Notes: generated from the sequence alone by a model not told the origin. Counted from the first letter of the stretch, positions 2,815-35,089 are shown. The stretch is DNA of 64,000 nucleotides from an uncultured Gemmiger sp. (GCA_944386495.1 CALXBE010000010.1:2822-66821); one strand, 5' to 3'. A program made the numbers and translations.

Positions 2815-3231
2815 TTATTGGGCCAGTCCGGCCTTGATGGTGGCCCGGACTACCTTCTTTCCATCCTGGTTCAGAATTTCCCCTCGGATAGTGATTTCCC
2901 GGAAAGTTTCGTTTACTTCTGTCACCGTTCCAACCACGGTAAGAGTGTCTCCGATGAATACGGGCCGGGTAAACTTACTGTCTACCTGGTGAAGGAGGCA
3001 ATGCTCTCCGGGTAAATATACCCCCGCCAGTGTGCTGAGCAGGGAAGCGGAGAGCATGCCGTATACCACCCGGCCTGGGTAACCCCGTCCGGCAGCGTAT
3101 TCTGCATCCATGTGGATGGGGCTGCAATCGCCGGTGATGGCATAGAACTGATCCATCATTTCCGGGGTTACGGTAACGGTGAAGCGTTCTTCCATCCCGG
3201 TATGGATTTGGTCAATGGTGTAATGATTCAT
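2815..3231 (-). CDS. MaoC-like hot-dog fold (de)hydratase
   Basis: Start taken at 'MNHYTID', which has AAGGAG 9 nt upstream. The segment 'AITGDCSPIHMDAEYAAGRGYPGRVVYGML' is the MaoC hydratase signature region. Confidence 0.8.
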   Translation of the reverse strand: MNHYTIDQIHTGMEERFTVTVTPEMMDQFYAITGDCSPIHMDAEYAAGRGYPGRVVYGMLSASLLSTLAGVYLPGEHCLLHQVDSKFTRPVFIGDTLTVVGTVTEVNETFREITIRGEILNQDGKKVVRATIKAGLAQ

Positions 3232-3302
3232 GTTTGCCGGCTCCTTTCCGGTATATAAACAGACTGCCGGGCAGCAGAGCCCGGCAGTCAGAAGGGAAAA
3301 CA

Positions 3303-3545
3303 TCAGGCGGACAGACGGGCGATCAGTTCCAGAATATCCCCTACATTATTCAGATTGCGAACATCCTCAAGTTTGAACTTGATTCCGAACTTCTTCTCCA
3401 TGGCGGTAAGAAGGTTGATCTGCTCCAGGCTGTCCCAGTCTTCAATATCCTGGGCGCTGGTGGCGGGGGTGATCACCAGGGTGTCATCGTCAAAGTTGTC
3501 ACGAAAAATGTTCTGGACAGCATCCAGAATTTGATTTTTATCCAT
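3303..3545 (-). CDS. Acyl carrier protein
   Basis: 80-aa acidic protein with the phosphopantetheine site motif 'DWDSLEQINLL' (DSL). Confidence 0.85.
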   Translation of the reverse strand: MDKNQILDAVQNIFRDNFDDDTLVITPATSAQDIEDWDSLEQINLLTAMEKKFGIKFKLEDVRNLNNVGDILELIARLSA

Positions 3546-3548
3546 GCT

Positions 3549-5339
3549 TTACTCCTTGGTTGGATTGGATTGAGACTGAATCACCTGACACATGGGAGAA
3601 AAATCCTCCGGAATCCGGTAAAGATAGCTCTTGTTTCCCTGGTCGTCACACTCGGTCTCCTCGAATCCGATTGTACCATAAAAATCCTGTACAAGCAAGT
3701 TTTTTGGGGTGGGGGAATAGTGCCCGGTAAGGGTGGTGATTCCGCTGTTCCGGCAAGCCTCCACCAGATGATCGAACATGGCAAATTCCATCTGCCGCTT
3801 GAAGGTCCGGCAGCTCATGATCCACAGCTCGATGTCCAGATTGTTATCCTCTCGGTGCCCGATAATGGCAGAGACGATTCCGTTGTCCCCGAATTTGTCA
3901 GCCAGCTGACCATAGAGGGTGATATATTCCGGACTTTGTATCATGCCTTCTACCTGGGCAGCACTGTACCGCCGGGTGGTGAGATTGAACTGGTTGGTCT
4001 TGTTGATGAGCTGGGTGATCCGAGGGGCGTGCTCCATGTCAAAGGGATAAAAGCCGCCAGTCATTTCCAGGCTTTTCAGGTATTCTTCATAGCTTCCGAA
4101 ATTTTCCTGGGCGGCGGTCCGCTGATAATTTTCCTTGTACATTCTGGCCCGGTTCCGGTCATCTGCCGAAAGGGTGGTGACCTCAAAATACCGGTTCCGG
4201 TCCAGGACCCTGGCGTACTCTTCCGGTGCTGTCATCTCCGGCACAGCCACGCCGGGAAGCTGCTGGCGGATGATTTCCCGCTCGGCAGGATTGTCGTCCA
4301 CAAAAACAAAGCTTTCGGGGAGAATATTGATTTCCTTGGCCATGGCGGACAGGTTCTGGCTTTTGGGCTCCCAGTTGGCCTTGAAGCAGAGGAAGTCCTC
4401 TTCTTTCAAAACACTGTCTTCCCGGGCAAAACCTTCCTTGGCGTTGGCGGGTTCATTTTTGCTGTCCACATTGAGAAGAACGCCCATCTGCCCCAGGTCT
4501 TTTATGTACTGCTGGAACTCAGAATAGGCCATGCCGGTGGGGGATTCGCTTCCCAGCTGGATTCCCTCGGGACCGTCATCCCCAATGATGCCTCCCCAGA
4601 GGGTGTTATCCAGGTCCAGGGCCAGTGCTTTCTTGTTAAGGCCGAAACAGCTTTTGATAATTGCCGCAAGGTTGCAGCAAAGGTCGGGCAGCTTGTCGAT
4701 GGCACAACAGTATTTGTAGGCATACCAGGCGGTCTGGTCACTGAAAGAGTCCATCCCAAACTGAGCCTGAAGATAAGCCAAGTCCTGGAGATACAGGTTG
4801 GGGGTGTTGTCTGCCAGCTGTGCCAGCTTTTCGTTCAGCCGACGGACAAAACGGACTTTGCCGGCAGGAGAACTGGCCTCGTAGTTCCCCATGGGACGAG
4901 TGACAGGCAGATCAAAGTTGTTAAGGATCACCGGACAGCCAAAGCGGAGTCCGGCAAGGGCTGCTTTCTCAAAGCGGGAGTATTCGTCCTCCAGCAGAGC
5001 CTCCGCCTCCTGGGCAGAGGCGGCAGGGGAGGGCCAGTGACGGATATTTCTGCTGCTGGTGTGGATATATATAATGTCAGGTGCAAAGGCTTTCAGGGAG
5101 CCATCGTCAAAGACCAGCTCTTCATAGAACAAGGAATATTCTCCCTGATGAAAGACGGGCCGGATACCGTTGTCCAGAAGGAACAGTTCCAGTAAATTCT
5201 GAATTTCGCCAATGGTGCTTCCGCTGAGAATTGCAATCCGCTTTTCCGGCAGGCCTTCCTTCTCGTTAAGCATCTTTTTCAGCCGGCGCTTTTTTTGCAG
5301 AATCTCTCCCGAATCAAAAGGGTAGGATAACAGATTCAT
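3549..5339 (-). CDS. FkbH-like HAD-superfamily IIIC phosphatase/acyl-ACP loading enzyme
   Basis: 596 aa with the HAD motif I 'LALDLDNTLWGGIIGDDG' and the overall FkbH architecture. It sits immediately upstream of the ACP gene. Confidence 0.8.
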   Translation of the reverse strand: MNLLSYPFDSGEILQKKRRLKKMLNEKEGLPEKRIAILSGSTIGEIQNLLELFLLDNGIRPVFHQGEYSLFYEELVFDDGSLKAFAPDIIYIHTSSRNIRHWPSPAASAQEAEALLEDEYSRFEKAALAGLRFGCPVILNNFDLPVTRPMGNYEASSPAGKVRFVRRLNEKLAQLADNTPNLYLQDLAYLQAQFGMDSFSDQTAWYAYKYCCAIDKLPDLCCNLAAIIKSCFGLNKKALALDLDNTLWGGIIGDDGPEGIQLGSESPTGMAYSEFQQYIKDLGQMGVLLNVDSKNEPANAKEGFAREDSVLKEEDFLCFKANWEPKSQNLSAMAKEINILPESFVFVDDNPAEREIIRQQLPGVAVPEMTAPEEYARVLDRNRYFEVTTLSADDRNRARMYKENYQRTAAQENFGSYEEYLKSLEMTGGFYPFDMEHAPRITQLINKTNQFNLTTRRYSAAQVEGMIQSPEYITLYGQLADKFGDNGIVSAIIGHREDNNLDIELWIMSCRTFKRQMEFAMFDHLVEACRNSGITTLTGHYSPTPKNLLVQDFYGTIGFEETECDDQGNKSYLYRIPEDFSPMCQVIQSQSNPTKE

Positions 5340-5404
5340 ATCAGGTCTCCTTGGGCAAAAATCTTTTAATTATACAAAAATATTCTATCACAAGGAGCTA
5401 TCTG

Positions 5405-5707
5405 TTACAAGCCGTAGTCTTCCAAAAGACTTTCCAGTTCAGAGTCGTTATAAACCGGAACTCCTTTTACAAGAGCAGCCTGATCACTCTCCGGAAGAAG
5501 ACGGGTATAAACCTCATATTCCTCTAAGAAGGTTTCACCATCGGGGGAATAAAGGGCAAGCTTTCCTCCCTGGTCCATAAGCAGATACCGGGGCTGCGGT
5601 ACCTCCGGCTCAACCGCGGCCGGCACAAACATCCAGATCAGTGCTGCTGCCAGGGCAGCCACACAGAGGATGGCCAATACTCCAAACCAGATTTTTTGTG
5701 TACGCAT
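5405..5707 (-). CDS. Small membrane-anchored protein, BofC C-terminal-domain-like
   Basis: Start at 'MRTQKIW' with a GGGGG RBS 7 nt upstream. One N-terminal TM helix is followed by 'YLLMDQGGKLALYSPDG...LLPESDQAALVKGVPVYNDSELESLLEDYGL'. Confidence 0.5.
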   Translation of the reverse strand: MRTQKIWFGVLAILCVAALAAALIWMFVPAAVEPEVPQPRYLLMDQGGKLALYSPDGETFLEEYEVYTRLLPESDQAALVKGVPVYNDSELESLLEDYGL

Positions 5708-5928
5708 AGCAAGACCCCCTTGCTTTTGGAATGAGTATGACACAGTCTGCAACAGCTTATTCAAGGGAAGAAAAACAGGTTCTGAAAAACCTTTGGATTT
5801 TTTTAAGATTATTTCAAATTGTTGAAATTTTGGTTTTTTGGGTGTACTTTTAAGGTGGTGTTGTGCTATAATAGCAACTAGATGACTGCGTTTTGAGACG
5901 ATTCAATGTATCAACGCAGGAAATTGGC

Positions 5929-8331
5929 ATGCCCCCTTTTATGTATGACCCAAGGAGGATTTTTGGTTTGGACAACAATTCTCGTAAATTAAAGACCAGA
6001 GGAGCAGTGGGAAGCAGCTCTTCCCGGCAGGCTTCTGCCCCCAAAGCGGCGGAAACTCCTGCTCCCCGAAAGCCGCATAAGAAGCGGCCGCTCTGGAAGC
6101 GGTTCCTGCGTTTCTGTGCGTATTGCTGCTGTGTGGGTGTTATCCTGTGCAGTATTCTTGCTGTTTTTCTAAGTAAGTATGTGGTGGATGTGACCGAGGA
6201 CGACGCTGAACTCCTGAATCTGGACAACCTGCGTCTTTCCATGAGCACCATCAACTATGACCGGTACGGCAACGAGTACAGCACCTTCAGCGGAAACAAC
6301 CAACGAATCTGGGTGGATGAGAGCGAAGTGCCCGAGTACCTGAAGTGGGCCATTATCTGTACTGAGGATAAGGACTTCTATCGGGAGCGGTGGGGCGTTA
6401 ACTTCAAGCGTACCATTGCCGCCTTCATCAATGAATACACTCCCATCAAGCTGTTTGATTCCCGTCAGGGTGCTTCCACTCTGGAACAGCAGCTGATCAA
6501 AAACCTGACCAACGATGACGATGTGGATGCCATGCGTAAGGTCCGGGAAATTTTCCGGGCCATTGGTTTGTCCAACCGCTATTCCAAGCAGAAGATCCTG
6601 GAAGCCTATATGAACACCATCAGCCTGACCGGTACCATAGCAGGCGTGCAGGCTGGCGCTCAGGAATACTTTGGCAAGGATGTCAGTGACCTGACCCTGG
6701 CAGAATGTGCCGTTATTGCAGGAATCACCAAGAATCCTACCCGGTACAATCCCTTTACCAACCCGGAAGATGTGCTGACCCGCCGGAATGACATTCTCTA
6801 CTTCATGTACACCCAGGGCAAGATCACGGAAGAGGAGTATACCGCTGCTTCCGCTGAACCCCTGGTGCTGGTGGAAAGCAAGAATGCAGCACAGACTTCT
6901 ACCGCTACCTCCAATAACTCCTACTTTACCGATGCTCTCTACTATGAAGTGCTGTCTGATCTCCAGACTGAGCTTGGCATGAGTGCGGATGAAGCCCGGA
7001 ACATGATTTACAACGGTGGTCTGCGTATCTACACCACTGTGGATACCGAACTGCAGTTGGCCGCTGAGCGGATCATGCTGGATGAGGACGGAAGCCGGTT
7101 CAAGCCTTTGTGGCATGAAGAAGAGGTTACCGAACTGGCCGAGGATGATATCCCTGTCTACGAGGAGGACGGAGTTACCCTCAAGACCTCTGAGAATGAG
7201 AAGGGAGAAACCGTCTACTACCGGAAGGTGCGTTCTCAGGGCTCTCTGGTCGTTGTGGACTATGACGGACAGGTCCAGGCTTTGGTAGGCGGCATCGGGG
7301 AGAAGACCAAGGATCTGGCCTTCAACCGCGCCATTGCTCCCCACCAGACAGGTTCTACCATGAAACCTGTTGCAGCCTACAGCCTGGGCATTGAGTACAA
7401 ACTCATCAACTACGGTACTGTTATTCCGGATTCGCCTTTGTACACTGCTGCAGACCGCAAGGTGCTGAACACCGATTACTGTCTCAAGTATGGTTACTCT
7501 CTGAATACTTCTGATCCCCGGACTCTGGCAAACGACGCCTGCTGGCGTGATTGGCCTGTCAACTATTCCGGCGCCGGTTCTGGAAAGAATGTGACCGTTT
7601 CTTATGCAATTGCTCAGTCTCTCAACACTGTAGCAGCCTGGGTTGGCAGCTTTGTGGGAATTGACAATATGTATAACTTTGTCACTGATACTCTTGAGCT
7701 GGAGTATATCACGGAGGCTGATAAGGATTACTCTCCTCTGGTCCTGGGTGGCCAGAGCAAGGGCCTTACCGCGGTGGAGCTGGCTGGCGTTTACACCATG
7801 TTTAACGACGGCAGTTATACCAAGCCCTATATGTACACTCGTATCGAGACCTACACTGGTGATGTCCTGATCGATAAGCAGAGCAATGCAACTACCATTC
7901 AGGCCATCAGCGAGGAAACCGCAACCATTATGAACCGGTTGCTGGCTAATGTTGTCCGTTCCGGCGGTACTGCTGCCGGCAAGAAGCCTGCGGGTCAGAT
8001 GGATGCAGCCGCCAAGACCGGTACCACCAGCGACTTTAAGGACTTTACCTTCGTCGGTATGACTCCCTACTATGTCACCGCTTTGTGGTGGGGCTTTGAT
8101 ACTCCTTACAGCTTCGATAACTTTGGAATCCGGAGTGGTACTCCCACCCAGCAGGCATGGAAGGACCTTATGGAGGAAGTGCAGGCTGATCTGGAATACA
8201 AGGAGTTCTTCTTCTCTGACAATGTGATCGTTCAGAACGGAGGATATTACACCGCAGATAATGTCACGGTGAATACCGAGCCTGATACTGCCACCACCAC
8301 TGAAACTGTGGAACCTGCTCCGGCAGCGTAA
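5929..8331 (+). CDS. Class A penicillin-binding protein (glycosyltransferase + transpeptidase, PBP1A family)
   Basis: GT51 motifs 'ICTEDKDFYRERWGVN' and 'GASTLEQQLIKN', and transpeptidase 'TGSTMKP' (SxxK). The start is ambiguous between TTG 5893, ATG 5929 and ATG 5941. Confidence 0.9.
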   Translation: MPPFMYDPRRIFGLDNNSRKLKTRGAVGSSSSRQASAPKAAETPAPRKPHKKRPLWKRFLRFCAYCCCVGVILCSILAVFLSKYVVDVTEDDAELLNLDNLRLSMSTINYDRYGNEYSTFSGNNQRIWVDESEVPEYLKWAIICTEDKDFYRERWGVNFKRTIAAFINEYTPIKLFDSRQGASTLEQQLIKNLTNDDDVDAMRKVREIFRAIGLSNRYSKQKILEAYMNTISLTGTIAGVQAGAQEYFGKDVSDLTLAECAVIAGITKNPTRYNPFTNPEDVLTRRNDILYFMYTQGKITEEEYTAASAEPLVLVESKNAAQTSTATSNNSYFTDALYYEVLSDLQTELGMSADEARNMIYNGGLRIYTTVDTELQLAAERIMLDEDGSRFKPLWHEEEVTELAEDDIPVYEEDGVTLKTSENEKGETVYYRKVRSQGSLVVVDYDGQVQALVGGIGEKTKDLAFNRAIAPHQTGSTMKPVAAYSLGIEYKLINYGTVIPDSPLYTAADRKVLNTDYCLKYGYSLNTSDPRTLANDACWRDWPVNYSGAGSGKNVTVSYAIAQSLNTVAAWVGSFVGIDNMYNFVTDTLELEYITEADKDYSPLVLGGQSKGLTAVELAGVYTMFNDGSYTKPYMYTRIETYTGDVLIDKQSNATTIQAISEETATIMNRLLANVVRSGGTAAGKKPAGQMDAAAKTGTTSDFKDFTFVGMTPYYVTALWWGFDTPYSFDNFGIRSGTPTQQAWKDLMEEVQADLEYKEFFFSDNVIVQNGGYYTADNVTVNTEPDTATTTETVEPAPAA

Positions 8332-8366
8332 AGGGTGTGTCCTTGCTGTAAACACAAAATCCTCAA

Positions 8367-8411
8367 AAACCCCTGTATCTGTTTTCGGTAAACGGATACA
8401 GGGGTTTCTTT
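8367..8411 (+). terminator. Rho-independent terminator after the PBP gene
   Basis: 13-bp stem AAACCCCTGTATC/GATACAGGGGTTT followed by a T-rich tail. Confidence 0.7.
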
Positions 8412-9052: not shown

Positions 9053-10282
9053 ATGGCAAAAATAGCGATTATGGGGTTCGGCACCGTAGGCAGCGGCGTG
9101 TTGGAAGTGATTCGCCGGAATGCTCAGAGCATCAGCCGTCGTGTGGGTGAACCGGTGGAAGTTAAATATATCCTGGATGTCCGGGATTTCTCCGGTCATC
9201 CGGATGCTGACCTCTTTGTAAATAATCTGGATGTGATTCTGCAGGACCCTGAAATCAAAGTGGTGGTGGAAACCATTGGCGGTACTAAATTTGCCTATCC
9301 CTATGTGAAGGCTGTTCTTGAAAGTGGCCGGAGCGTCTGCACCAGCAACAAAGAAATGGTTGCCACCTACGGCGCAGAACTGCTTGCACTGGCAAAATCT
9401 CATGGTGCGGCTTTCCTGTTTGAAGCCAGCGTGGGCGGCGGTACTCCCATTATCACTCCCATGCATCAGTGTCTGGTGGCTAACAACATCAGCGAGGTGG
9501 AAGGCATTGTAAACGGCACCACCAATTTCATGCTGACCAAAATGAAGACCGAAAGCATGGGATTTGAAGAGGCCCTGAAAATCGCTCAGGACCTGGGTTA
9601 TGCTGAAACAAAGGACCCGGGAGATGATGTGGATGGTCGGGATGCCTGCCGGAAAATTGCAATTCTCGCCAGCCTTGCCTATGGTCAGCATGTTTATCCC
9701 GCAAATATTCCCACTCGCGGAATCAAAGACATTACCGTTCTGGATATCAAGGCCGCCGAAAAGCTGGATTGTGCTATCAAGCTGATTGCCTGGGCCCGCC
9801 GGGATGAAGCCGGAAACATTGCAGCCGGTGTGGAGCCTATGCTGGTCTCCAGTGAAAATCAGCTGGCCGGTGTGGATGATGTGTTCAATGCTGTCCTCAT
9901 GAAAGGGGATATGCTTGGTGATGTGGTCTTCTACGGCAAGGGCGCGGGAAAACTGCCCACTGCCAGTGCCGTGGTGGCAGATGTAATTGATGCCCTGAAG
10001 AACGGAGCAAAAGTCCATGACAGCCTCTTCTGGCAGCCCAGCATTCCCTATGAAGGTATGTTGGAAGACACTTCCGCTTCCGTTACCTACCTGCGTACCA
10101 AAGGCCTCGCCCCTGAAGTAATGAACACTCTCTTTGGGGAAGGGGAAGTGGTTCTGCGGCAGGAAGATCAGGTGTGTTATCTGGCCCAGTCCATGACCCT
10201 CAAGGAGTTGGAGGATGTCAAGCCTAAGGTCAGCGCCCTGGGCGGAGAGATCCAGCTGTTTATGCGCCGGCTGGAACAGTAA
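9053..10282 (+). CDS. hom: Homoserine dehydrogenase
   Basis: 409 aa with 'IAIMGFGTVGSGV', 'VCTSNKEMVA', 'FEASVGGGTPII' and a C-terminal ACT-like tail. Confidence 0.9.
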   Translation: MAKIAIMGFGTVGSGVLEVIRRNAQSISRRVGEPVEVKYILDVRDFSGHPDADLFVNNLDVILQDPEIKVVVETIGGTKFAYPYVKAVLESGRSVCTSNKEMVATYGAELLALAKSHGAAFLFEASVGGGTPIITPMHQCLVANNISEVEGIVNGTTNFMLTKMKTESMGFEEALKIAQDLGYAETKDPGDDVDGRDACRKIAILASLAYGQHVYPANIPTRGIKDITVLDIKAAEKLDCAIKLIAWARRDEAGNIAAGVEPMLVSSENQLAGVDDVFNAVLMKGDMLGDVVFYGKGAGKLPTASAVVADVIDALKNGAKVHDSLFWQPSIPYEGMLEDTSASVTYLRTKGLAPEVMNTLFGEGEVVLRQEDQVCYLAQSMTLKELEDVKPKVSALGGEIQLFMRRLEQ

Positions 10283-29351: not shown

Positions 29352-30749
29352 ATGGCGGCAAAATTAAAAACCATTTATATATGCAGCGACTGCGGGGAAA
29401 CCAGTCCCCGGTGGATGGGGCGTTGCCCCTCCTGCGGCGCCTGGAACACCATGGTGGAGGATGTGGTGGATACTGCACCGGATAAAGGCAAGGGAGCAAA
29501 AGCCCCTCTGACCGGGCAGCGAAAAACTACTCTGACTCCCAGCCGGCTTTCCGAAATCAGTACAGATGAGGAGAGAAGCCGGATCGTCACCGGGATTGGA
29601 GAACTGGACCGTGTTCTGGGCGGTGGCATTGTTCTGGGCAGTGTTGTCCTTTTGGGTGGCGAACCGGGAATTGGCAAGTCTACCGTCTTGCTTCAGCTCT
29701 GCGGGGCCATCAGCCGTGATAGAAATATGCTGTATGTCACAGGTGAGGAGTCTGTCCGGCAGATCAAGCTGAGAGCGGACCGACTGAAGGTACCTCAGCA
29801 GAATATCATGCTGGTGGCAGAGAATGATATAGAAGAAATCTGCGGACTGATTGAGCAGATGAAGCCGGAACTGGTAGTCATTGATTCTATCCAGACCATG
29901 CGGTGCAATGACCTGAACAGTGCCACTGGGACTGTCTCTCAAATCAAAGAGTGTGCAGCCAGGCTGGTGGCTGTCGCAAAAAGCTACGAGATACCGGTAT
30001 TTATTGTGGGCCATGTGAATAAGGAAGGCGCGCTTGCCGGACCTAAAGTCATGGAGCACATTGTAGACACCGTGTTGTATTTTGAGGGAGATAAAACCCT
30101 GCCGTACCGTGTTCTTCGGGCCGCCAAAAACAGATATGGCTCCACCAACGAGATTGGAATGTTTGATATGACCGGAGACGGTCTCAAGGAAATTGAAAAT
30201 CCCAGCCAGCTGCTGCTGGAGGGACGGCCCCTGGGAATCAGCGGGAACTGCGTGGCCTGCACCATGGAGGGGACCCGTCCCATCCTCAGTGAAGTGCAGG
30301 CTTTGGTCGCCAAGAGCGGGCTCCAGGTTCCTCGCCGCACTGCAAGCGGGTTTGATTATAACCGGATGAATCTTCTTTTGGCGGTTTTGGAAAAGCGGGC
30401 CGGGTACCTCTTTGGCAACCAGGATGTTTATCTGAACATTGTGGGCGGATTGCGGCTTGACGAGACAGCTTGTGATCTGGCTGTCTGTGTGGCTTTGGCT
30501 TCCAGCCTGTTGGATTTGCCGGCAGGGGATAAGACGGTAGCCATTGGAGAGGTTGGTCTGGGAGGAGAAATCCGGACAGTTACTCATCTGGAATCCCGGC
30601 TGCGGGAAGCTCAGCGGATCGGATTTGAAAAAGCAATCATTCCTAAACACAGTATGGCGCAGCTTGACCTTAAACAGTTCAAAGGAATGGAGCTGATTGG
30701 GGTCACATACTTGAGAGAGGCTGTGAACGCCATCAAAATCAAGGAATAA
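29352..30749 (+). CDS. radA: DNA repair protein RadA/Sms
   Basis: Zinc finger 'CSDCGETSPRWMGRCPSCGAWNT', Walker A 'GGEPGIGKST', 'KNRYGSTNEIG', and a Lon-like C-terminal domain. Confidence 0.95.
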   Translation: MAAKLKTIYICSDCGETSPRWMGRCPSCGAWNTMVEDVVDTAPDKGKGAKAPLTGQRKTTLTPSRLSEISTDEERSRIVTGIGELDRVLGGGIVLGSVVLLGGEPGIGKSTVLLQLCGAISRDRNMLYVTGEESVRQIKLRADRLKVPQQNIMLVAENDIEEICGLIEQMKPELVVIDSIQTMRCNDLNSATGTVSQIKECAARLVAVAKSYEIPVFIVGHVNKEGALAGPKVMEHIVDTVLYFEGDKTLPYRVLRAAKNRYGSTNEIGMFDMTGDGLKEIENPSQLLLEGRPLGISGNCVACTMEGTRPILSEVQALVAKSGLQVPRRTASGFDYNRMNLLLAVLEKRAGYLFGNQDVYLNIVGGLRLDETACDLAVCVALASSLLDLPAGDKTVAIGEVGLGGEIRTVTHLESRLREAQRIGFEKAIIPKHSMAQLDLKQFKGMELIGVTYLREAVNAIKIKE

Positions 30750-30754
30750 ATCTG

Positions 30755-30796
30755 TCCCGTCGGCTGCATTGTAAAGTGTGCCGGCGGGATTTATTA
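30755..30796 (+). terminator. Probable terminator after radA
   Basis: Stem TCCCGTCGGC/GCCGGCGGGA (one G-T pair) followed by TTTATT. Confidence 0.55.
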
Positions 30797-30829
30797 TATG
30801 GATATTATAGGGATTCAGCTGAAATTGCC

Positions 30830-30857
30830 TTGACAGATTCCGGGGAAGTACTATAAT
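30830..30857 (+). promoter_or_regulatory. Near-consensus sigma-A promoter directed rightwards
   Basis: TTGACA (30830-30835), 16-nt spacer, TATAAT (30852-30857). Confidence 0.6.
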
Positions 30858-30871
30858 AAAGATATAATCTA

Positions 30872-30884
30872 TTTCGCTAAAGAT
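30872..30884. repeat. Left copy of the 13-bp direct repeat (attL core)
   Basis: TTTCGCTAAAGAT, identical to 33899-33911. Confidence 0.8.
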
Positions 30885-30950
30885 TCACAATTTGGCGAAG
30901 CGTTCTGCTTCGCTAAATTTGTCTTTGGCGACATTGCGGACAGTGAGGAA

Positions 30951-30987
30951 ACCGGCTCCCGGATTACAGGAGCCGGTTCTTTTTATG
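30951..30987 (+). terminator. Rho-independent terminator just inside the element's left end
   Basis: 10-bp stem AACCGGCTCC/GGAGCCGGTT with a 9-nt loop, followed by CTTTTTAT. Confidence 0.7.
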
Positions 30988-31007
30988 CCGGCAGAAAGGG
31001 GACGTTT

Positions 31008-31229
31008 ATGCAAAACTACATGGAGGTAACGGTGCTGAGCACCAGCGCCGAGGTATTCCGGGGACGGGGTGGGGACCCCGACAGGACGATGCACCGATTG
31101 TACATTGCCGGAAGTGATGGGCGTGTGGGCTACCTGTACAGCCAGACCCCCCACGAACCCGGCGCAGTGGTTCGCCTGGGCCTGACGGAGCGGGACGGAA
31201 AGTTGAAACTGCGGGTGCTGAAGGACTGA
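31008..31229 (+). CDS. Hypothetical 73-aa protein of the element
   Basis: ATG lies 7 nt after AAAGGGG. Coding-like composition, with no motif I recognise. Confidence 0.45.
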   Translation: MQNYMEVTVLSTSAEVFRGRGGDPDRTMHRLYIAGSDGRVGYLYSQTPHEPGAVVRLGLTERDGKLKLRVLKD

Positions 31230-31244
31230 GAAAGGGGGGCGACC

Positions 31245-31298
31245 TTGACACTGTGAGAGGGGCTACGCCCTCTCACAGTGTCAAGTGTCAGTGTCAAA
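31245..31298 (+). promoter_or_regulatory. Putative double-strand origin: 17-bp perfect inverted repeat with a 6-nt loop, plus adjacent short direct repeats
   Basis: TTGACACTGTGAGAGGG-gctacg-CCCTCTCACAGTGTCAA (31245-31284) is followed by GTGTCA GTGTCAA, abutting the rep start. The loop contains CTACG. Confidence 0.55.
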
Positions 31299-31967
31299 AT
31301 GGGAAAAATGCGGAACAGGTGGTGCAGTCTGGTCCTATACCCGGAAAGCCAGGCAGAAGCCATCGAAAAGGCCACAACCACCTTCCCCTGCGTGTGGATA
31401 ACCCACGACAAGGATAAGGGGCCGGACGGGGAACTCATGAAGCCCCATGTCCATATCTTGTGTCACTTCGGGAATGCCCGGTACTTCTCCGGGATAGCCA
31501 AAGAGTTGGCGGTCCCGGAGGGGGCGGTCAATCGGGTGGACAACCCGGAAAAGGCGTTTGCCTACCTGACCCACGACAACAACCCGGAAAAGTATCAGTA
31601 CGATAAAGCGGACTTATGTTTCCATGACTTCGCCATGGGGGAAGCGGACCAGGCCGGAGCGGCAGAGGAGGAACAGGTGGTGCAACTGCTGGAAATGCCC
31701 CAGGGCCTCACCAGGAGACAGGCGGCAAGGTGGGCCCTGGAAAATGGGTGCTGGGCGGCATACCGGCGGGGGTACGCAATCTTCCGGGACATCCGGGAGG
31801 AAGAGGCGGCGCTTGGGTCTGCCCGTGCCAGGGCTGAGAGAATCGAAGCCCTAGAACGGGCGGCCCAGTACGAAAAGGAGCACCCGGTTTCTGTTGTGAT
31901 GGGTGGCGCAGTAGGGCGGCTGGTTGCCGCCAGTGAGGGGCAACCCTGGACAGGGCCGGAACACTGA
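31299..31967 (+). CDS. Rolling-circle replication initiator, pMV158 RepB-like (Rep_2, HUH endonuclease)
   Basis: 'LVLYPES', 'ITHDKDK', the HUH motif 'KPHVHIL', the catalytic-Tyr region 'AYLTHD', and 'YQYDKADL'. These follow the order and spacing I recall for pMV158 RepB. Confidence 0.8.
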   Translation: MGKMRNRWCSLVLYPESQAEAIEKATTTFPCVWITHDKDKGPDGELMKPHVHILCHFGNARYFSGIAKELAVPEGAVNRVDNPEKAFAYLTHDNNPEKYQYDKADLCFHDFAMGEADQAGAAEEEQVVQLLEMPQGLTRRQAARWALENGCWAAYRRGYAIFRDIREEEAALGSARARAERIEALERAAQYEKEHPVSVVMGGAVGRLVAASEGQPWTGPEH

Positions 31968-32045
31968 AAAGCCGGGGCCTGTCGCACAATTCCGGCAAGT
32001 TCTGGGAAGGAGTTTACATTTTGTGGAAAGTAAAAGAGGGGCAGA

Positions 32046-32585
32046 ATGGGCCGCAGTAGCTGGGTAAGTGATGATGCTATGGGCCACGTACTGGCGGCAC
32101 TTACGCCGCAGAATCGCCTGGTGATGGAGGTGTGTATCAGCACCGGGCTCCGGGTGGGGGACGTGCTGGCCCTCAAAACAGCGGCCCTCCGGCCCCGGCA
32201 AACCATCCGGGAGCAGAAAACCGGAAAGACCAGGCGGGTCCGGTGGAGAAAGGACCTCTACGAAAGGATGTTGGCGGGGGCCGGGCGGCTGTGGGTGTTT
32301 GAGGGCCGCACCGACTGGAAGAGACACCGCACCCGGCAGGCCGTGTGGAAGGACCTGCGAAGGATTGCCCGGGTATTCCTGCCCGGTGGGAGCATACCCA
32401 GAGGGGCACAGGTCAGCCCGCACAGCGCCCGGAAAATGTACGCCGTGGGGCTCCTCCATCAGACCGGAGACCTGCGGAGGGTCCAGAAGGAACTCAACCA
32501 CGATAGTGAGGCTGTGACATTGCTCTACGCAATGGCGGACCAGATAGGCAGGAAAGGAGGTGGAAAATGTGGGCATATTGGATGA
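32046..32585 (+). CDS. Minimal (179-aa) tyrosine recombinase, catalytic domain only
   Basis: The full R-K-HxxR-H-Y set is present: 'GLRVGDVLAL', 'EQKTGKTRRV', 'PHSARKMYA' and 'LNHDSEAVTLLYA'. There is no room for an N-terminal core-binding domain. Confidence 0.75.
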   Translation: MGRSSWVSDDAMGHVLAALTPQNRLVMEVCISTGLRVGDVLALKTAALRPRQTIREQKTGKTRRVRWRKDLYERMLAGAGRLWVFEGRTDWKRHRTRQAVWKDLRRIARVFLPGGSIPRGAQVSPHSARKMYAVGLLHQTGDLRRVQKELNHDSEAVTLLYAMADQIGRKGGGKCGHIG

Positions 32586-32781
32586 GCTAGATCTGTTGAA
32601 TGTACGCCTGCGACTGGTACGGGCTAAATTGGAGCGTGCCCTTGGAGCTGTCGTTGCCTGGGAAGAGGACTGGCCCAGCACGGAGGCGCTGGATGCACTG
32701 AAACAGGCGAACAAGACCCTCGTGGGGATTGTGTGTCAGGTGGACGAACTGAGGACGGAGGAACGGCTGGGGAGGCGGTGA
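32569..32781 (+). CDS. Hypothetical ~70-aa helical protein (possible directionality factor or regulator)
   Basis: GTG lies 6 nt after AAGGAGGTG and overlaps the recombinase 3' end. Heptad-like 'LDLLNVRLRLVRAKLERAL'. A strong terminator follows. Confidence 0.4.
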   Translation: MGILDELDLLNVRLRLVRAKLERALGAVVAWEEDWPSTEALDALKQANKTLVGIVCQVDELRTEERLGRR

Positions 32782-32801
32782 GCCCCGCTCCCCCTGTTGG
32801 C

Positions 32802-32842
32802 GCCCCCGTATAACAACCAAAGGTTGTTATACGGGGGCTTTT
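32802..32842 (+). terminator. Strong rho-independent terminator ending the element's coding module
   Basis: 17-bp perfect stem GCCCCCGTATAACAACC-aaa-GGTTGTTATACGGGGGC followed by TTTTG. Confidence 0.75.
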
Positions 32843-33800
32843 GCGGCTGTACGGTATAGCGGGCCTGTCGGTGCCTGGGCCCACTGGCCCAGGAGAACAA
32901 GGCAAGAAAGCCCCCCCCCAGCGTACCGCAGTACGCCCGAAAAGCGGAACGCCCCCGCCCCCCTGGGGGGGCGGGGGCTTCCGCTTGGCGGTAGCTGGGG
33001 GGGTATTAAGATAAAGGCCACGAGCCCACAAGCGCCCGGCAAGGCGGGTACCGTGGTACACCCGCCGAGCCGCTGGCGCTGTGAGGCAAGGGCCGAGGGT
33101 GCCGGGCACCGGCGGTGGCGGCCGCCGCAGGACCGGCACCCAACCGACCGACGTTGATACGGCCGGGCACCGGCCGTGCAGGGCGGTCAAGGTGGAGGCC
33201 CCCCAAAGGGGGGCACTACCTTGACTGCCCTGCACGACAGTGCAACCGGCAGACATTCGACCCCCCGGCAAGGCCGGGGGGGAGCGGGGCCGCTTGGCCC
33301 CCAGCGGGCGGCAAACAGAAAGAACAGAATCCGCCCGCTACCTTGTGTGTGTGAGGTCTGGGGCCGCTGGGCCGTCCACGGCCCTTGTGGCCCCAGGACG
33401 AACAGGCACCCAGGGCGGGGCAAGGCGGGAGCCTGACCCCTTGGGGGGGCAGGCTGGGGCCGTCCATGAAGAGATGATGCTGACCAGGCCAGCCGCCGCC
33501 GTAGGGTGGCGGCGGCTGGGCCGCAAAAAGAAAGAGACACCAGCTTCACCGGTGCCTCTTTCTTCAATAGGGGACGTTGCCGCCCCACCATCGGGCCACT
33601 ATCATAATACCACCACCGGCCCAGGCTGTCAACCCCCAATTTTGCACTGCCTACCCGTAGGCGTTACCACCCCACCGGAGGGCCGCCCCCCTCCCACGGG
33701 AGGGGCGGGGGGGTGGGCTCACCCTTCGCACCGCCTACCCGTTGCCCCTGGGCCTGACCTCTGGGCGGGGCCGGTCACCGGGTAGCTTGACCGGCCCCTC
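32843..33800. other. ~1-kb G+C-rich non-coding region made of many nested perfect or near-perfect hairpins (candidate large structured RNA or oversized single-strand origin)
   Basis: No credible ORF; the only ORFs are Pro/Gly/Arg/Ala-rich and overlap on both strands. At least 12 stems of 6-20 bp were found by eye, several enclosed by longer-range pairings. Strand undetermined. Confidence 0.4.
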
Positions 33801-33897
33801 ATGGACTTTTGATGACGTCAACTGGAGATTTGTTTCACAAAGGCTCCCGCCAGTTGACGGGGAGAATTGGAGGTGATACCATAGAGCCATGGGAGCC

Positions 33898-33925
33898 GTT
33901 TCGCTAAAGATAAGTTTAGCGAAAT
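33898..33925. promoter_or_regulatory. 28-bp palindromic recombinase-type site (11-6-11) upstream of the xer-like gene
   Basis: gTTTCGCTAAA-GATAAG-TTTAGCGAAAT. With the left flank restored the arms become perfectly symmetric (ATTTCGCTAAA / TTTAGCGAAAT). Confidence 0.5.
33899..33911. repeat. Right copy of the 13-bp direct repeat (attR core)
   Basis: TTTCGCTAAAGAT, identical to 30872-30884. Confidence 0.8.
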
Positions 33926-34036
33926 AGAGGGAAGGGCAAAAGCAGTAAAAAGGCTTTATTTATAGGCTAAGTCCGCAATAAGGCTTGGAATCATTAAAAA
34001 GCTTGGAACCATTAAATTATCATAAGGGTTTTTATT

Positions 34037-35089
34037 ATGAGTTCTTATTTGAATCAACTTCATCCTGAGCGGCATGATGCTTATCTGGATATTCCCCAGG
34101 ATGCTCAGGAATATCTTCATTATCTGGATTATGTGAAACATCTCTCGCCAAGAACCATTCATGGCTATTACCTGGATCTCAGAACTTTCTTCCGATACCT
34201 TATGATTCATAAAGGCATCGTTTCACAGGATACTCCTTTACAAGAAATCGACCCAAGAACTATAACCATCCAGGATATCAGGGCCGTTCAGAAGTCCGTC
34301 ATTTTTGCTTATCTGCAGTATCTGCAGGCCCATAATAATTCCTTCGCAGCTCGCAGTCGCAAGCTGACAGCACTGCGGGGCTTCTATCATTACCTTCTCA
34401 CCCAGGTAGGACGCATCAAATATGATCCCACCGAGGACATTGATTTAGGCTCTCCCAGAAAGACACTGCCCAGATACCTGACCCTGGAGGAAGCTCAATC
34501 TTTGTTAAATAATACACAAAGTGATTTTGCAGAACGAGATTACTGTATAATAACATTGTTTTTGAATTGCGGGATGCGGCTGGTGGAGCTGTGCGGCATC
34601 AGTATGTCGGATTTCAGAGACGATACCATCCGAATCGTTGGCAAAGGCGGCAAAGAACGGCTGGTTTACCTTAATGATGCCTGTCTGGATGCGCTTCGCC
34701 ATTATCTGCCTGTCCGGAATAAACTGAAGCTGACCGAAAAGGATGCGCTGTTTATCAGCAAACGGACTGGAAAACGGCTTACGCCCAGACGAGTGCAGCA
34801 AATTGTGGAGCGCAGTTTGAAAGCGGCCGGACTGGACGGACGCGGATTTTCCCCACACAAACTGCGGCACACTGCAGCTACGCTTATGTATCAATATGGG
34901 AATGTGGATATGTTGGCACTCAAAGAAATTTTGGGGCACGAGAATGTATCCACCACCCAAATTTACACCCACATCAATACAAAGCAGCTGAAAAATGCGG
35001 TAGCCTCCTCTCCCCTTTCTGGTGTTACTTACCCGCAAAAAAAGCTCCGGGAGGAGCCGGAGCCTGAATCAGAGGAAGAGGATTCCTAA
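34037..35089 (+). CDS. Xer-like site-specific tyrosine recombinase (350 aa, acidic C-terminal tail)
   Basis: N-terminal SAM-like domain 'LSPRTIHGYYLDLRTFFRYL'. Catalytic 'GMRLVELCGI', 'GKGGKERLVYL', 'HKLRHTAAT' and 'LGHENVSTTQIYTH'. Confidence 0.85.
   Translation: MSSYLNQLHPERHDAYLDIPQDAQEYLHYLDYVKHLSPRTIHGYYLDLRTFFRYLMIHKGIVSQDTPLQEIDPRTITIQDIRAVQKSVIFAYLQYLQAHNNSFAARSRKLTALRGFYHYLLTQVGRIKYDPTEDIDLGSPRKTLPRYLTLEEAQSLLNNTQSDFAERDYCIITLFLNCGMRLVELCGISMSDFRDDTIRIVGKGGKERLVYLNDACLDALRHYLPVRNKLKLTEKDALFISKRTGKRLTPRRVQQIVERSLKAAGLDGRGFSPHKLRHTAATLMYQYGNVDMLALKEILGHENVSTTQIYTHINTKQLKNAVASSPLSGVTYPQKKLREEPEPESEEEDS

Follow-up and report, generated by a model that had tools for sequence, protein, structure and literature searches.

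A 3-kb rolling-circle plasmid with its own small recombinase, probably integrated by arm mimicry at a dif-like site beside xer in an uncultured Gemmiger

We analysed a stretch of 64,000 nucleotides from an uncultured Gemmiger sp. (GCA_944386495.1, CALXBE010000010.1:2822-66821; hereafter, the window), in which a G+C-rich element of about 3 kb lies between radA and xer, the latter coding for a Xer-like tyrosine recombinase. Strains of the host species vary in whether they carry the element, which also exists as a free (or tandem) circle of 3.02 kb. The explanation that we favour, with a probability of about 0.78, is that it is a miniature rolling-circle plasmid, integrated through mimicry of one arm of a dif-like site linked to xer and bringing its own minimal recombinase.

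Integrated, empty and circular forms of the element

The preliminary description of this stretch, made from the sequence without database searches, had proposed an integrated small rolling-circle plasmid, and this reading proved largely right, on the evidence of empty sites, circles and profile matches. The identical 13-bp direct repeats that it placed at both ends are there: the 13-mer TTTCGCTAAAGAT has exactly two matches in the window, at 30872-30884 and 33899-33911, and none of 100 shuffled sequences gave two. Rather than being a common motif, the 13-mer exceeds chance in the window, unlike the arm word TTTCGCTAAA (10 nt, at most one mismatch), whose six matches are not above chance. Outside the attachment (att) sites, the arm word occurs only as two one-mismatch matches, TTTCGGTAAA at 8383 and 60996. 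The higher G+C content was also confirmed (0.630 against 0.513 in the remaining window), and it is a family trait, as five other integrated copies stand 4-16 points above their own flanks. Deleting the insert gives ATTTCGCTAAA-GATAAG-TTTAGCGAAAT, that is, the expected host site with perfect 11-bp inverted arms, but not the perfect 28-bp palindrome that had been claimed, the 6-bp centre being non-palindromic.

To compare alleles, we used the identity of the RadA protein as the same-species anchor. Contigs with a RadA identical to that of the window and no insert were found repeatedly (L195, with nine similar places, L197, L198, L201, L202, and L203), together with a further filled allele (L200). 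Where the empty contigs include xer, the gap between radA and xer is 243 nt. Identity to L195 is 99.8% in one flank of the window and 98.1% in the other. The empty site of L202 is ATTTCGCTAAAGATAAGTTTAGCGAAAT, exactly as predicted from the filled allele, while those of L195, L197, L198, L201, and L203 read ATTTCGCTAAA-GACAAG-TTTAGCGAAAT. The site is therefore polymorphic at the third position of the centre, mostly GAC when empty (L195, 6520-6547) and GAT in L202 and in both junctions of the filled allele. Either the element enters the GAT allele only or the base was converted, and the GAC allele might be refractory to integration.

All contigs with the exact Xer protein of the window, from four further samples, are filled (they carry the right end of the element), and one of them, L003, has single-nucleotide polymorphisms (SNPs) inside the element. 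A tandem duplication of 17-18 nt in the xer leader (33984-34020), ggaatcattaaaaagcttggaaccattaaatt, is missing in L003 as well as in the empty alleles L195 and L197, and it explains an 18-nt length difference between the filled intergenic region minus the insert and the empty one.

The free circle of about 3.0 kb that had been anticipated was recovered as well. A search with the Rep protein of the element gave a cluster at ≥90% identity, with several members on contigs of 3,034-3,052 bp. Three contigs from three runs (L008, L094, and L095) each show a 30-nt terminal overlap and close into circles of 3,018-3,021 bp, at 94-95% identity over the aligned stretches. Their junction reads ...CCATGGGAGCTG-TTTCGCTAAAGAT-TCACAATTTGGCG..., with the right end joined to the left one through a single 13-mer, and L096 carries the same junction in the interior of the contig. 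A 13-bp repeat cannot close a cycle in a k=31 graph, the one indicated by the 30-nt overlaps, so the reads must hold a circular or tandem junction.

The attachment sites and the dif-like site of the host

The attachment site of the circle (attP, read in L008) is GTTTCGCTAAA-GAT/TCACAA-TTTGGCGAAGC-GTTCT-GCTTCGCTAAA-TTTGTC-TTTGGCGACAT, and that of the empty chromosome (attB, read in L202) is ATTTCGCTAAA-GAT/AAG-TTTAGCGAAAT, the slash marking the point where the identity between the two ends. In the window, attL starts with the A of the host, followed by GATTCACAA, and attR starts with a G from the element, as in the attP of L008, the rest being as in L202. The crossover thus falls inside the 13 shared nucleotides, towards the left arm from the centre. 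Of the host site, attP copies the F arm and, from the 6-nt centre, no more than the initial 3 nt; the right half of the centre is heterologous.

The same geometry recurs among relatives. The layout F-(8-10)-R-(4-5)-F-6-R is also present in L010 and in the Subdoligranulum variabile element L101, and its F1-(8-10)-R1 part in L116, L122, and the circles L135-L139. In L101 the two centres are TGTA/AA and TGTA/TAGTAA, with a 15-nt repeat; the centre homology is TAA/ in L116 and TGC/ in L122 and L142, where the element is inserted the opposite way relative to xer; L171, in a host with ACTATACAAAA arms, has a 19-nt repeat formed by the arm and the entire 6-nt centre. In all five element/host pairs (window, L101, L116, L122, and L171), the identity between attP and attB is confined to the F arm and the left 3-6 nt of the centre. 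Among free forms, circle L181 (2,540 bp) carries two sites in tandem whose arms are of yet another host class, ATTATACAAAA, and circles with a 323-aa initiator (rep323, see below) carry the same arms as integrated elements. As TTTCGCTAAA, ACTATACAAAA, and ATTATACAAAA each match a host arm class, the arms of the elements follow the dif arms of their hosts.

Some further arrangements were observed around these sites. In L122, L123, and L142 (xer at 3119-4126 on the minus strand, element at 4359-8355), the orientation relative to xer is opposite to that of the window, which indicates that the centre of a site with palindromic arms is usable, or oriented, either way across hosts. L126 has an A+T-rich insert of ~840 bp at its dif-like site (890-1756), without rep or recombinase, bounded by an attL-like F-9-R-6-F cluster and an intact dif, with ~95 nt of upstream host sequence repeated on either side; this insert may be a decayed element or a non-autonomous one. 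In L124, L126, L128, and L158, a rep323-type relative (~4400-7700) lies ~1.6 kb downstream of xer (1808-2818), without TTCGCTAAA arms and with an intact dif upstream of xer; this relative seems to use a different attachment site. Lastly, the single-stranded DNA (ssDNA) of the window-type attP folds well into a CTX-like forked hairpin (z -6.1), and that of L101 prefers two separate hairpins; we rejected this folding as evidence, since it follows automatically from tandem palindromic sites.

The host Xer has 350 aa and scores below the curated cut-offs of XerC, XerD, XerA, and XerS. A scan of species-representative genomes with this protein gave 80 loci (L012-L091) in Subdoligranulum, Gemmiger, Ruminococcus, Acutalibacteraceae, and Oscillospiraceae. 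In ~55 of the 80 genomes, a site with the 11-6-11 geometry of dif lies 10-490 nt upstream of xer; its arms are perfect in most cases and carry 1-2 mismatches in some. From lineage to lineage the arm sequence changes yet stays palindromic (ATTTCGCTAAA, ACTTCGCTAAA, ATTATACAAAA, CTTATACAAAA, ATTGCACCAAA, and others) around a variable, mostly A+T-rich centre, and the order radA-site-xer is frequent. The two nearest species, L012 and L013 (Xer 65% and 61% identical), have the uninterrupted sites GTTTCGCTAAA-GATAAG-TTTAGCGAAGT and ATTTCGCTAAA-GATGAG-TTTAGCGAAAT, each preceded by a TTGACA...TAxxxT box.

The GC skew also changes near the site. In the window it is +0.09 to +0.17 at 8-34 kb and about zero or negative past 34 kb, where the gene orientation converges. 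Averaging over 13-kb windows in 49 genomes, the mean skew flips at the site from +0.038 upstream to -0.052 downstream (28 loci against 5 reversed; Wilcoxon p=4.8e-5). Geometry, linkage to xer, co-variation of the arms, and skew switch are the traits by which the XerS/difSL, XerH/difH, and XerL/dif modules were defined (PMC1914069, PMC2731167, PMC9765430). From the same traits, we infer that the site is the chromosome dif, served by a single Xer, and that site and xer probably form an undescribed single-recombinase dif/Xer system of Oscillospirales; in the literature, of which our coverage is incomplete, we found no description of a Xer module of this kind in Clostridia.

The promoter-like boxes around the element show a consistent arrangement. 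The host box to the left of attL has the same sequence upstream of the empty sites of L195 and L197, with analogous boxes in L012, L013, and L171; in alleles without insert it points across the dif-like site into xer. The box at the right end of the element points across attR towards xer and, in the circle, across attP; stronger equivalents occur in L101 (CTTGACAG...), L171 (TTGACA-17-TATAAT), and the circles L135, L138, and L139. This arrangement suggests that insertion swaps promoters, placing an element-borne box before xer and the host promoter before the element. A third box, on the minus strand (33604-33632), has an equivalent in L101 (~9350-9390, TTGACA-17-TACAGT); it may serve a single-strand origin as its ssDNA promoter, or else drive a structured RNA.

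Gene content, replication modules and relatives

The features of the element and of its flanks are collected in Table 1. Its four open reading frames (ORFs), orf73, rep, the recombinase gene, and orf70/73, are all intact and conserved. The ORF and profile scans agree with the gene content given in the preliminary description, and hidden Markov model matches sustain the assignments of both enzymes. To the right of orf70/73 (32782-33898) there is no credible gene, only chance ORFs as expected for G+C-rich DNA. In the ORF, Pfam, and PHROG scans, the element shows no coat, Zot, morphogenesis, membrane-protein, or transfer genes.

Table 1. Features of the element and its surroundings (positions in the window)
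Feature	Position	Strand	Description
Host radA	29352..30749	+	Left flank gene; Pfam AAA_25/KaiC/Zn-ribbon/ChlI pattern
Host promoter-like site	30830..30857	+	TTGACA-16-TATAAT, 12/12; just left of attL
attL	30871..30934	+	F arm ATTTCGCTAAA 30871-81; GAT/TCACAA (9 nt); R1 TTTGGCGAAGC 30891-901; GTTCT
attL, second site	30907..30934		F2 GCTTCGCTAAA 30907-17; TTTGTC; R2 TTTGGCGACAT 30924-34; canonical 11-6-11 spacing
Integrated element	30885-33911		3,027 bp including one repeat copy
Terminator-like hairpin	30950..30999	+	Hairpin 30950-30984, stem 30950-59/30969-78, then TTTTT; overlaps RSB-like word and orf73 ribosome-binding site
orf73	31008..31229	+	Small conserved protein, predicted five-stranded beta-barrel, OB-like
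Candidate double-strand origin	31244..31297	+	Hairpin, then three GTGTCA repeats, just 5' of the rep ATG
rep	31299..31967	+	pMV158 RepB-type HUH rolling-circle initiator; Pfam Rep_OBD (PF01719) 9.1e-17
Tyrosine recombinase	32046..32585	+	Catalytic-domain-only, 179 aa; Phage_integrase 5e-13; PHROG integrase 2e-21
orf70/73	32560..32781	+	Small protein, role unassigned; called in all close copies
Non-coding hairpin-rich region	32782..33898		1.1 kb, right third of the element; G+C 0.68; includes terminator 32802-32838
Strong promoter-like site	33604..33632	-	TTGACA-17-TATTAT, TG; points leftwards into the hairpin region
Element promoter-like site	33854..33882	+	TTGACG-17-TACCAT, TG; 16 nt before the right att arm
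attR, regenerated dif-like site	33898..33925	+	GTTTCGCTAAA-GATAAG-TTTAGCGAAAT
Host xer	34037..35089	+	Full-length Xer-like tyrosine recombinase, 350 aa; Phage_integrase 1e-38 and SAM-like N domain

The recombinase matches Phage_integrase over profile positions 23-168 of 172, so the whole protein corresponds to the catalytic domain alone. The residues R36, K58/K61, H126, R129, H152, and Y161 are invariant in 30 diverse homologues. A derivation from the host Xer was considered and rejected, there being no similarity past the catalytic motif.

The family of this recombinase is large. At E<=1e-3 it comprises 4,875 clusters; the best 120 of them are 167-300 aa long (all but five 167-207) and 51-97% identical, mostly on contigs of 2-5 kb. 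Among the 80 metagenome loci that we read, 19 are closed circles of 2.5-4.6 kb, and others are integrated next to xer or radA. At least four types of initiator travel with the recombinase, namely Rep_OBD, the 323-aa rep323 protein, Rep_1 (4e-70), and REP_ORF2-G2P (1e-11), and integration beside xer is seen for three of these at least four types. No match in Pfam, NCBIfam, or PDB came up for the rep323 protein in the S. variabile relative; by eye, its motifs look Rep_trans-like. When the Rep_1-type circles were compared with the 14 arm classes that we had catalogued, no dif-arm mimicry emerged, and for this branch the targeting of dif is therefore not demonstrated. The exact recombinase of the S. 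variabile lineage occurs in 649 blocks of the contig collection, and in the contexts that we read (24 contigs, three places) the element lies immediately upstream of xer-yajC-tgt-queA.

In databases of mobile elements, the family is encoded by seven unannotated circles of the rat-caecum plasmidome in PLSDB, has one close match (53%) and nine others of 24-36% in IMG/VR, and has no match among phage records. With regard to coverage, circle L184 (ERZ1024349 NODE_624) reaches 139 against 21 and 5 for L152 and L186 of the same assembly, and L135, L157, L166, L177, and L179 reach 46-62; these high values are consistent with multicopy episomes. Judging from these sequences, the recombinase marks thousands of small replicons of 2.5-4.6 kb, a large undescribed family in gut Clostridia.

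The Rep protein aligns to the PDB structures of RepB (8amt/3dkx) with an E-value of 6e-5, the HUH (HvHiL) and YLTH tyrosine motifs being in register, while its C-terminal half is unrelated to that of RepB. Its best N-terminal matches are plasmid Reps, including those of lactobacillus rolling-circle plasmids, and cover only the N-terminal 100 aa. Rep is also 24-32% identical, over ~75% of its length, to the Reps of 'Inovirus sp.' (MT1352xx) and bajarodino virus (PQ0061xx), gut genomes of 4-7 kb that are filamentous-phage-like, so the coverage is longer than with plasmid Reps; this hints at an exchange of Rep genes between inoviruses and plasmids. No PHROG match was found for Rep, orf73, or orf70.

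Origins of pMV158 type have a nick site in a hairpin loop, accompanied by direct repeats. The hairpin and iteron-type repeats previously noticed 5' of rep turned out to be a perfect 18-bp stem (31244-31285, loop GCTACG) and three GTGTCA copies (31278-31296), and across five aligned copies this putative origin is invariant except for one compensatory change of a G:C to an A:T pair. At 30983-30999, a word similar to the RSB of ssoA single-strand origins, TTATGCCG-GC-AGAAAGG, was compared with the consensus TTATGCCGAGAAAATTT (PMC4598088); there is no CS-6 at the expected distance, and we judged the word too weak a lead for an ssoA assignment.

The orf73 product has homologues of 35-84% identity in elements of the Rep_OBD and rep323 types, where they occur together with the recombinase; its family is small, with ~25 short representatives at 50% clustering. 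It has no sequence match in Pfam or PDB. An AlphaFold2 model, built from a three-sequence alignment, is a five-stranded barrel (mean predicted local distance difference test score, pLDDT, 87). Its best Foldseek neighbours, all weak (E>=0.018), are nucleic-acid-binding folds of the oligonucleotide-binding (OB) type, namely PrgE of pCF10 with DNA, the OB domains of RPA and Ta0387, and HIN-200, with Ff gene V at rank 21. The protein is probably nucleic-acid binding, on the basis of this model. No element protein matches the ribbon-helix-helix/CopG fold, the gene 5' of rep being that of the OB-like barrel, and no RNAII-type or other Rfam family, nor a Mob protein, was recognised in the element. 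The orf70/73 product, without family match in the Pfam, PHROG, and NCBIfam scans, looks helical by eye from its sequence.

For the non-coding region, a consensus fold of seven copies (77-99% identical) has 335 pairs, 24 of them compensatory, and 1.7% non-standard cells. Rfam gave only sub-threshold miRNA-like hairpin matches for 30000-35000, which we discarded. The region is a candidate for the lagging-strand origin and for regulatory hairpins of the rolling-circle replicon. Its only two A+T-rich islands, 32999-33019 and 33594-33614, are 81% complementary. Contig L092 follows the consensus of the close copies nearly throughout, with the exception of the central long hairpin (33150-33250 in the window; ~4400-4500 in L092), which is like that of the 80%-identity variants L009 and L010 and suggests recombination between variants of the element.

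Integration mechanism, alternatives and significance

Several known systems share part of these traits. Compared with the integrative mobile elements exploiting Xer (IMEX; CTXphi, VGJphi, and TLCphi of Vibrio, and the gonococcal genetic island), our element has a similar target of dif-type 11-6-11 geometry, which from its linkage to xer and the GC-skew switch is presumably the host dif. It also shows mimicry of the arms in attP and one-sided homology of the centre (GAT/AAG against GAT/TCA in the window, and likewise in L101, L116, and L122), implying a single pair of strand exchanges; with CTXphi it would also share a rolling-circle mode through ssDNA (PMC4246890, PMC4439123). Unlike IMEX, which have no recombinase, it has a conserved catalytic-domain-only tyrosine recombinase, complete by its residues, no phage genes, and a size of only 3 kb, and its host is a Gram-positive gut anaerobe with an apparently single Xer and palindromic arms.

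LME-1 of Legionella is a large phage-like element. According to its description (PMC9765430), it too inserts a dif mimic in a single-recombinase dif site, XerL-dif, which revealed the system, and leaves a modified dif copy; it relies on the host XerL, whereas here the element brings its own small recombinase and xer is immediately adjacent to the site. On the side of the host, the XerS/difSL systems of streptococci and lactococci and XerH/difH of Helicobacter are alike in having one xer linked to a site near the skew switch, with (near-)palindromic arms around a short centre (PMC1914069, PMC2731167, PMC5241119). The site described here differs in being 28 bp long with perfect arms, placed between promoter and xer, and in being known from sequence alone; a palindrome adjacent to a single xer recurs in the ~55 of 80 genomes reported above.

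With plasmids of the pMV158/pLS1 type, the element shares a size of few kb, a Rep_OBD protein with the HUH and catalytic tyrosine motifs, and a putative hairpin origin with direct repeats upstream of rep. It differs in the lack of a recognised CopG/RNAII module or Mob, in the recombinase, the dif-mimic attP, and integration, and in having one third of its length as G+C-rich hairpin DNA. The integrative and conjugative elements of actinomycetes (AICEs; pSAM2, SLP1, pMEA300) also alternate between an integrated state and a free rolling-circle form and use a tyrosine recombinase, but they are 9-24 kb long, with a full-length Int plus Xis, transfer genes, and tRNA targets rather than dif (PMC2440964); we found instead four small genes, no Tra or Spd, and a dif-like target. 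The rat-caecum pRGF... circles (HG796788 and others) are free circles of 2.2-3.8 kb with recombinases of the family at 41-52% identity; their coding sequences are unnamed, and the paper only counts 'phage integrase' domains, with no integration site, dif mimic, or chromosomal state (PMC3913684).

On the whole, by analogy with these systems, the element appears IMEX-like in site choice and crossover geometry, pMV158-like in replication, and AICE-like in lifestyle only. The preliminary description did not recognise its class, but the traits of IMEX and of integrative rolling-circle plasmids, which the element combines, make it not wholly unrecognisable. In the literature, incompletely covered, we found no prior description of dif-targeting rolling-circle plasmids.

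Elements that exploit Xer exchange one pair of strands, and the junction is completed otherwise (PMC4246890, PMC3442271). By analogy with CTX and VGJ, integration of our element would start with one pair of strand exchanges at the boundary between F arm and centre. As the right half of the centre is heterologous, replication, or else a second exchange of a specialised kind, would then finish the junction. The catalytic-domain-only recombinase of the element would be needed, most likely working with host Xer bound to the mimicked arm; it would supply an FtsK-independent activity and perhaps occupy the aberrantly spaced right arm of attP. In the free circle, the RepB-type Rep would nick the hairpin origin 5' of its own gene and replicate the molecule via a single-stranded intermediate. 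The lagging-strand origin would lie in the G+C-rich, hairpin-rich third, and ssDNA may be bound by the OB-like product of orf73. After insertion, the host promoter would face the element behind the terminator-like hairpin, and the right-end box of the element would face xer.

As for the proteins at work, we rank first, tentatively and at somewhat less than even odds, a cooperation of host Xer and small recombinase, followed by the small recombinase alone and then by host Xer alone. A more specific and doubtful form of the cooperation is that 'half' recombinases of 170-190 aa have no DNA recognition of their own and act in a mixed synapse with host Xer, in a split host-parasitic system. Host Xer would read the mimicked arm and the plasmid protein, on the mis-spaced right arm, would provide FtsK-independent activation or catalysis; the tandem sites in ssDNA may fold as substrate, as in CTXphi.

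If the 179-aa recombinase alone recombines attP and the chromosomal site, host Xer is uninvolved and the dif-like site is just a conserved safe target. We consider this unlikely, though with an appreciable chance. All its catalytic residues are invariant, it is present in every integrated relative recovered (although these were found by a recombinase search), and L171 shares the whole 6-nt centre with its host, so that a normal two-exchange reaction is possible there. Moreover, recombinases of the FimB/FimE type, of ~200 aa, work with a catalytic domain only. Nevertheless, the centre is homologous on one side only in four of the five pairs, and heterology normally blocks the second exchange; the arms of attP copy the host arm class though the recombinases differ by ~40-45%; and the protein has no N-terminal DNA-binding domain.

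Distinctly unlikely, in our view, is that the element behaves as a pure IMEX, integrated by host Xer alone through the dif mimic, with the small recombinase serving for multimer resolution at F2-6-R2 or for excision. A resolvase of their own, however, is seldom necessary for small rolling-circle plasmids. Mimicry of the arms and a centre homologous on one side are signatures of the CTX/VGJ/TLC-type IMEX and of LME-1/XerL (PMC4246890, PMC9765430). The attP holds a second canonical 11-6-11 site (30907-30934) that is not the crossover site, the gene-less 840-bp insert of L126 sits with att-like ends at a dif site, and Rep_1-type circles carry the recombinase and no recognisable dif arm. On the other hand, IMEX are by definition without a recombinase, and in this family no gene is more conserved than the recombinase, which accompanies dif-mimic attP sites across three Rep types.

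In Vibrio, the satellites TLC and RS1 insert at dif (PMC6744903), and our element could likewise be a satellite or a defective form of a filamentous ssDNA phage, packaged by a helper inovirus, with a gene-V-like orf73 and a packaging signal in the hairpin region. The resemblance of Rep to inovirus and bajarodino Reps and that of the orf73 model to OB folds, including Ff gene V, go in this direction. The absence of coat, Zot, morphogenesis, and membrane-protein genes, the single close IMG/VR match of the recombinase, with none in phage records and a PHROG match for the integrase only, and the plasmid origin of the best N-terminal Rep matches make it improbable. Very improbable, and already contradicted by the circles and the empty alleles, is an inactive, vertically inherited remnant whose repeats and circles are assembly artefacts or ancient history: the uniformly filled contigs with the exact Xer allele and the SNPs of L003 fit vertical descent, but contigs with the same RadA differ in whether the insert is there, three circles have one and the same junction, which the 13-bp repeat cannot close, the four ORFs are conserved, and closed circles are frequent among the metagenome loci.

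Some observations weigh against the integrated plasmid that we favour, or against parts of its mechanism. The commonest empty allele, GAC, is one base off the presumed target of the filled allele, GAT, and the element looks stably inherited in the sublineage with the exact Xer allele, all of whose contigs are filled. The circles could be tandem arrays instead of episomes, and none comes from the window's own sample. The protein that binds the arm is deduced only from adjacency and co-variation, and the host may have XerC/D and a conventional dif elsewhere in its genome; the skew switch is confounded with the convergent gene orientation, and 16 of the 49 loci have no sign change. Finally, a terminator-like hairpin stands between attP and orf73, no promoter is assigned to rep, the OB-fold assignment of orf73 depends on low Foldseek scores and a three-sequence alignment, and the two strands of the non-coding region fold nearly alike in compensatory counts and mismatches, so that ssDNA(+), RNA, or both may be the folded form.

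If the proposed mechanism is true, a site-mimicking plasmid that brings its own minimal recombinase would be a third way of using dif, and the element would stand between IMEX, which have no recombinase, and the classical integrative elements, which have a full integrase and their own site. Likewise, if the 'half' recombinase reading is true, a split host-parasitic recombination system would be common to thousands of tiny rolling-circle plasmids. The finding draws attention, too, to what seems an undescribed dif module with a single Xer in the Oscillospirales (Subdoligranulum, Gemmiger, Ruminococcus, Acutalibacteraceae), major human-gut anaerobes in which chromosome-dimer resolution is not known to have been studied. 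The recombinase clusters number more than 4,800, mostly on 2-5-kb contigs and in some cases highly covered, and these elements may therefore rank with the more frequent small replicons in the gut. With a size of 3 kb and a defined chromosomal landing site, they would be attractive as natural vectors, for shuttling or for integration, in those gut Clostridia that resist genetic work.

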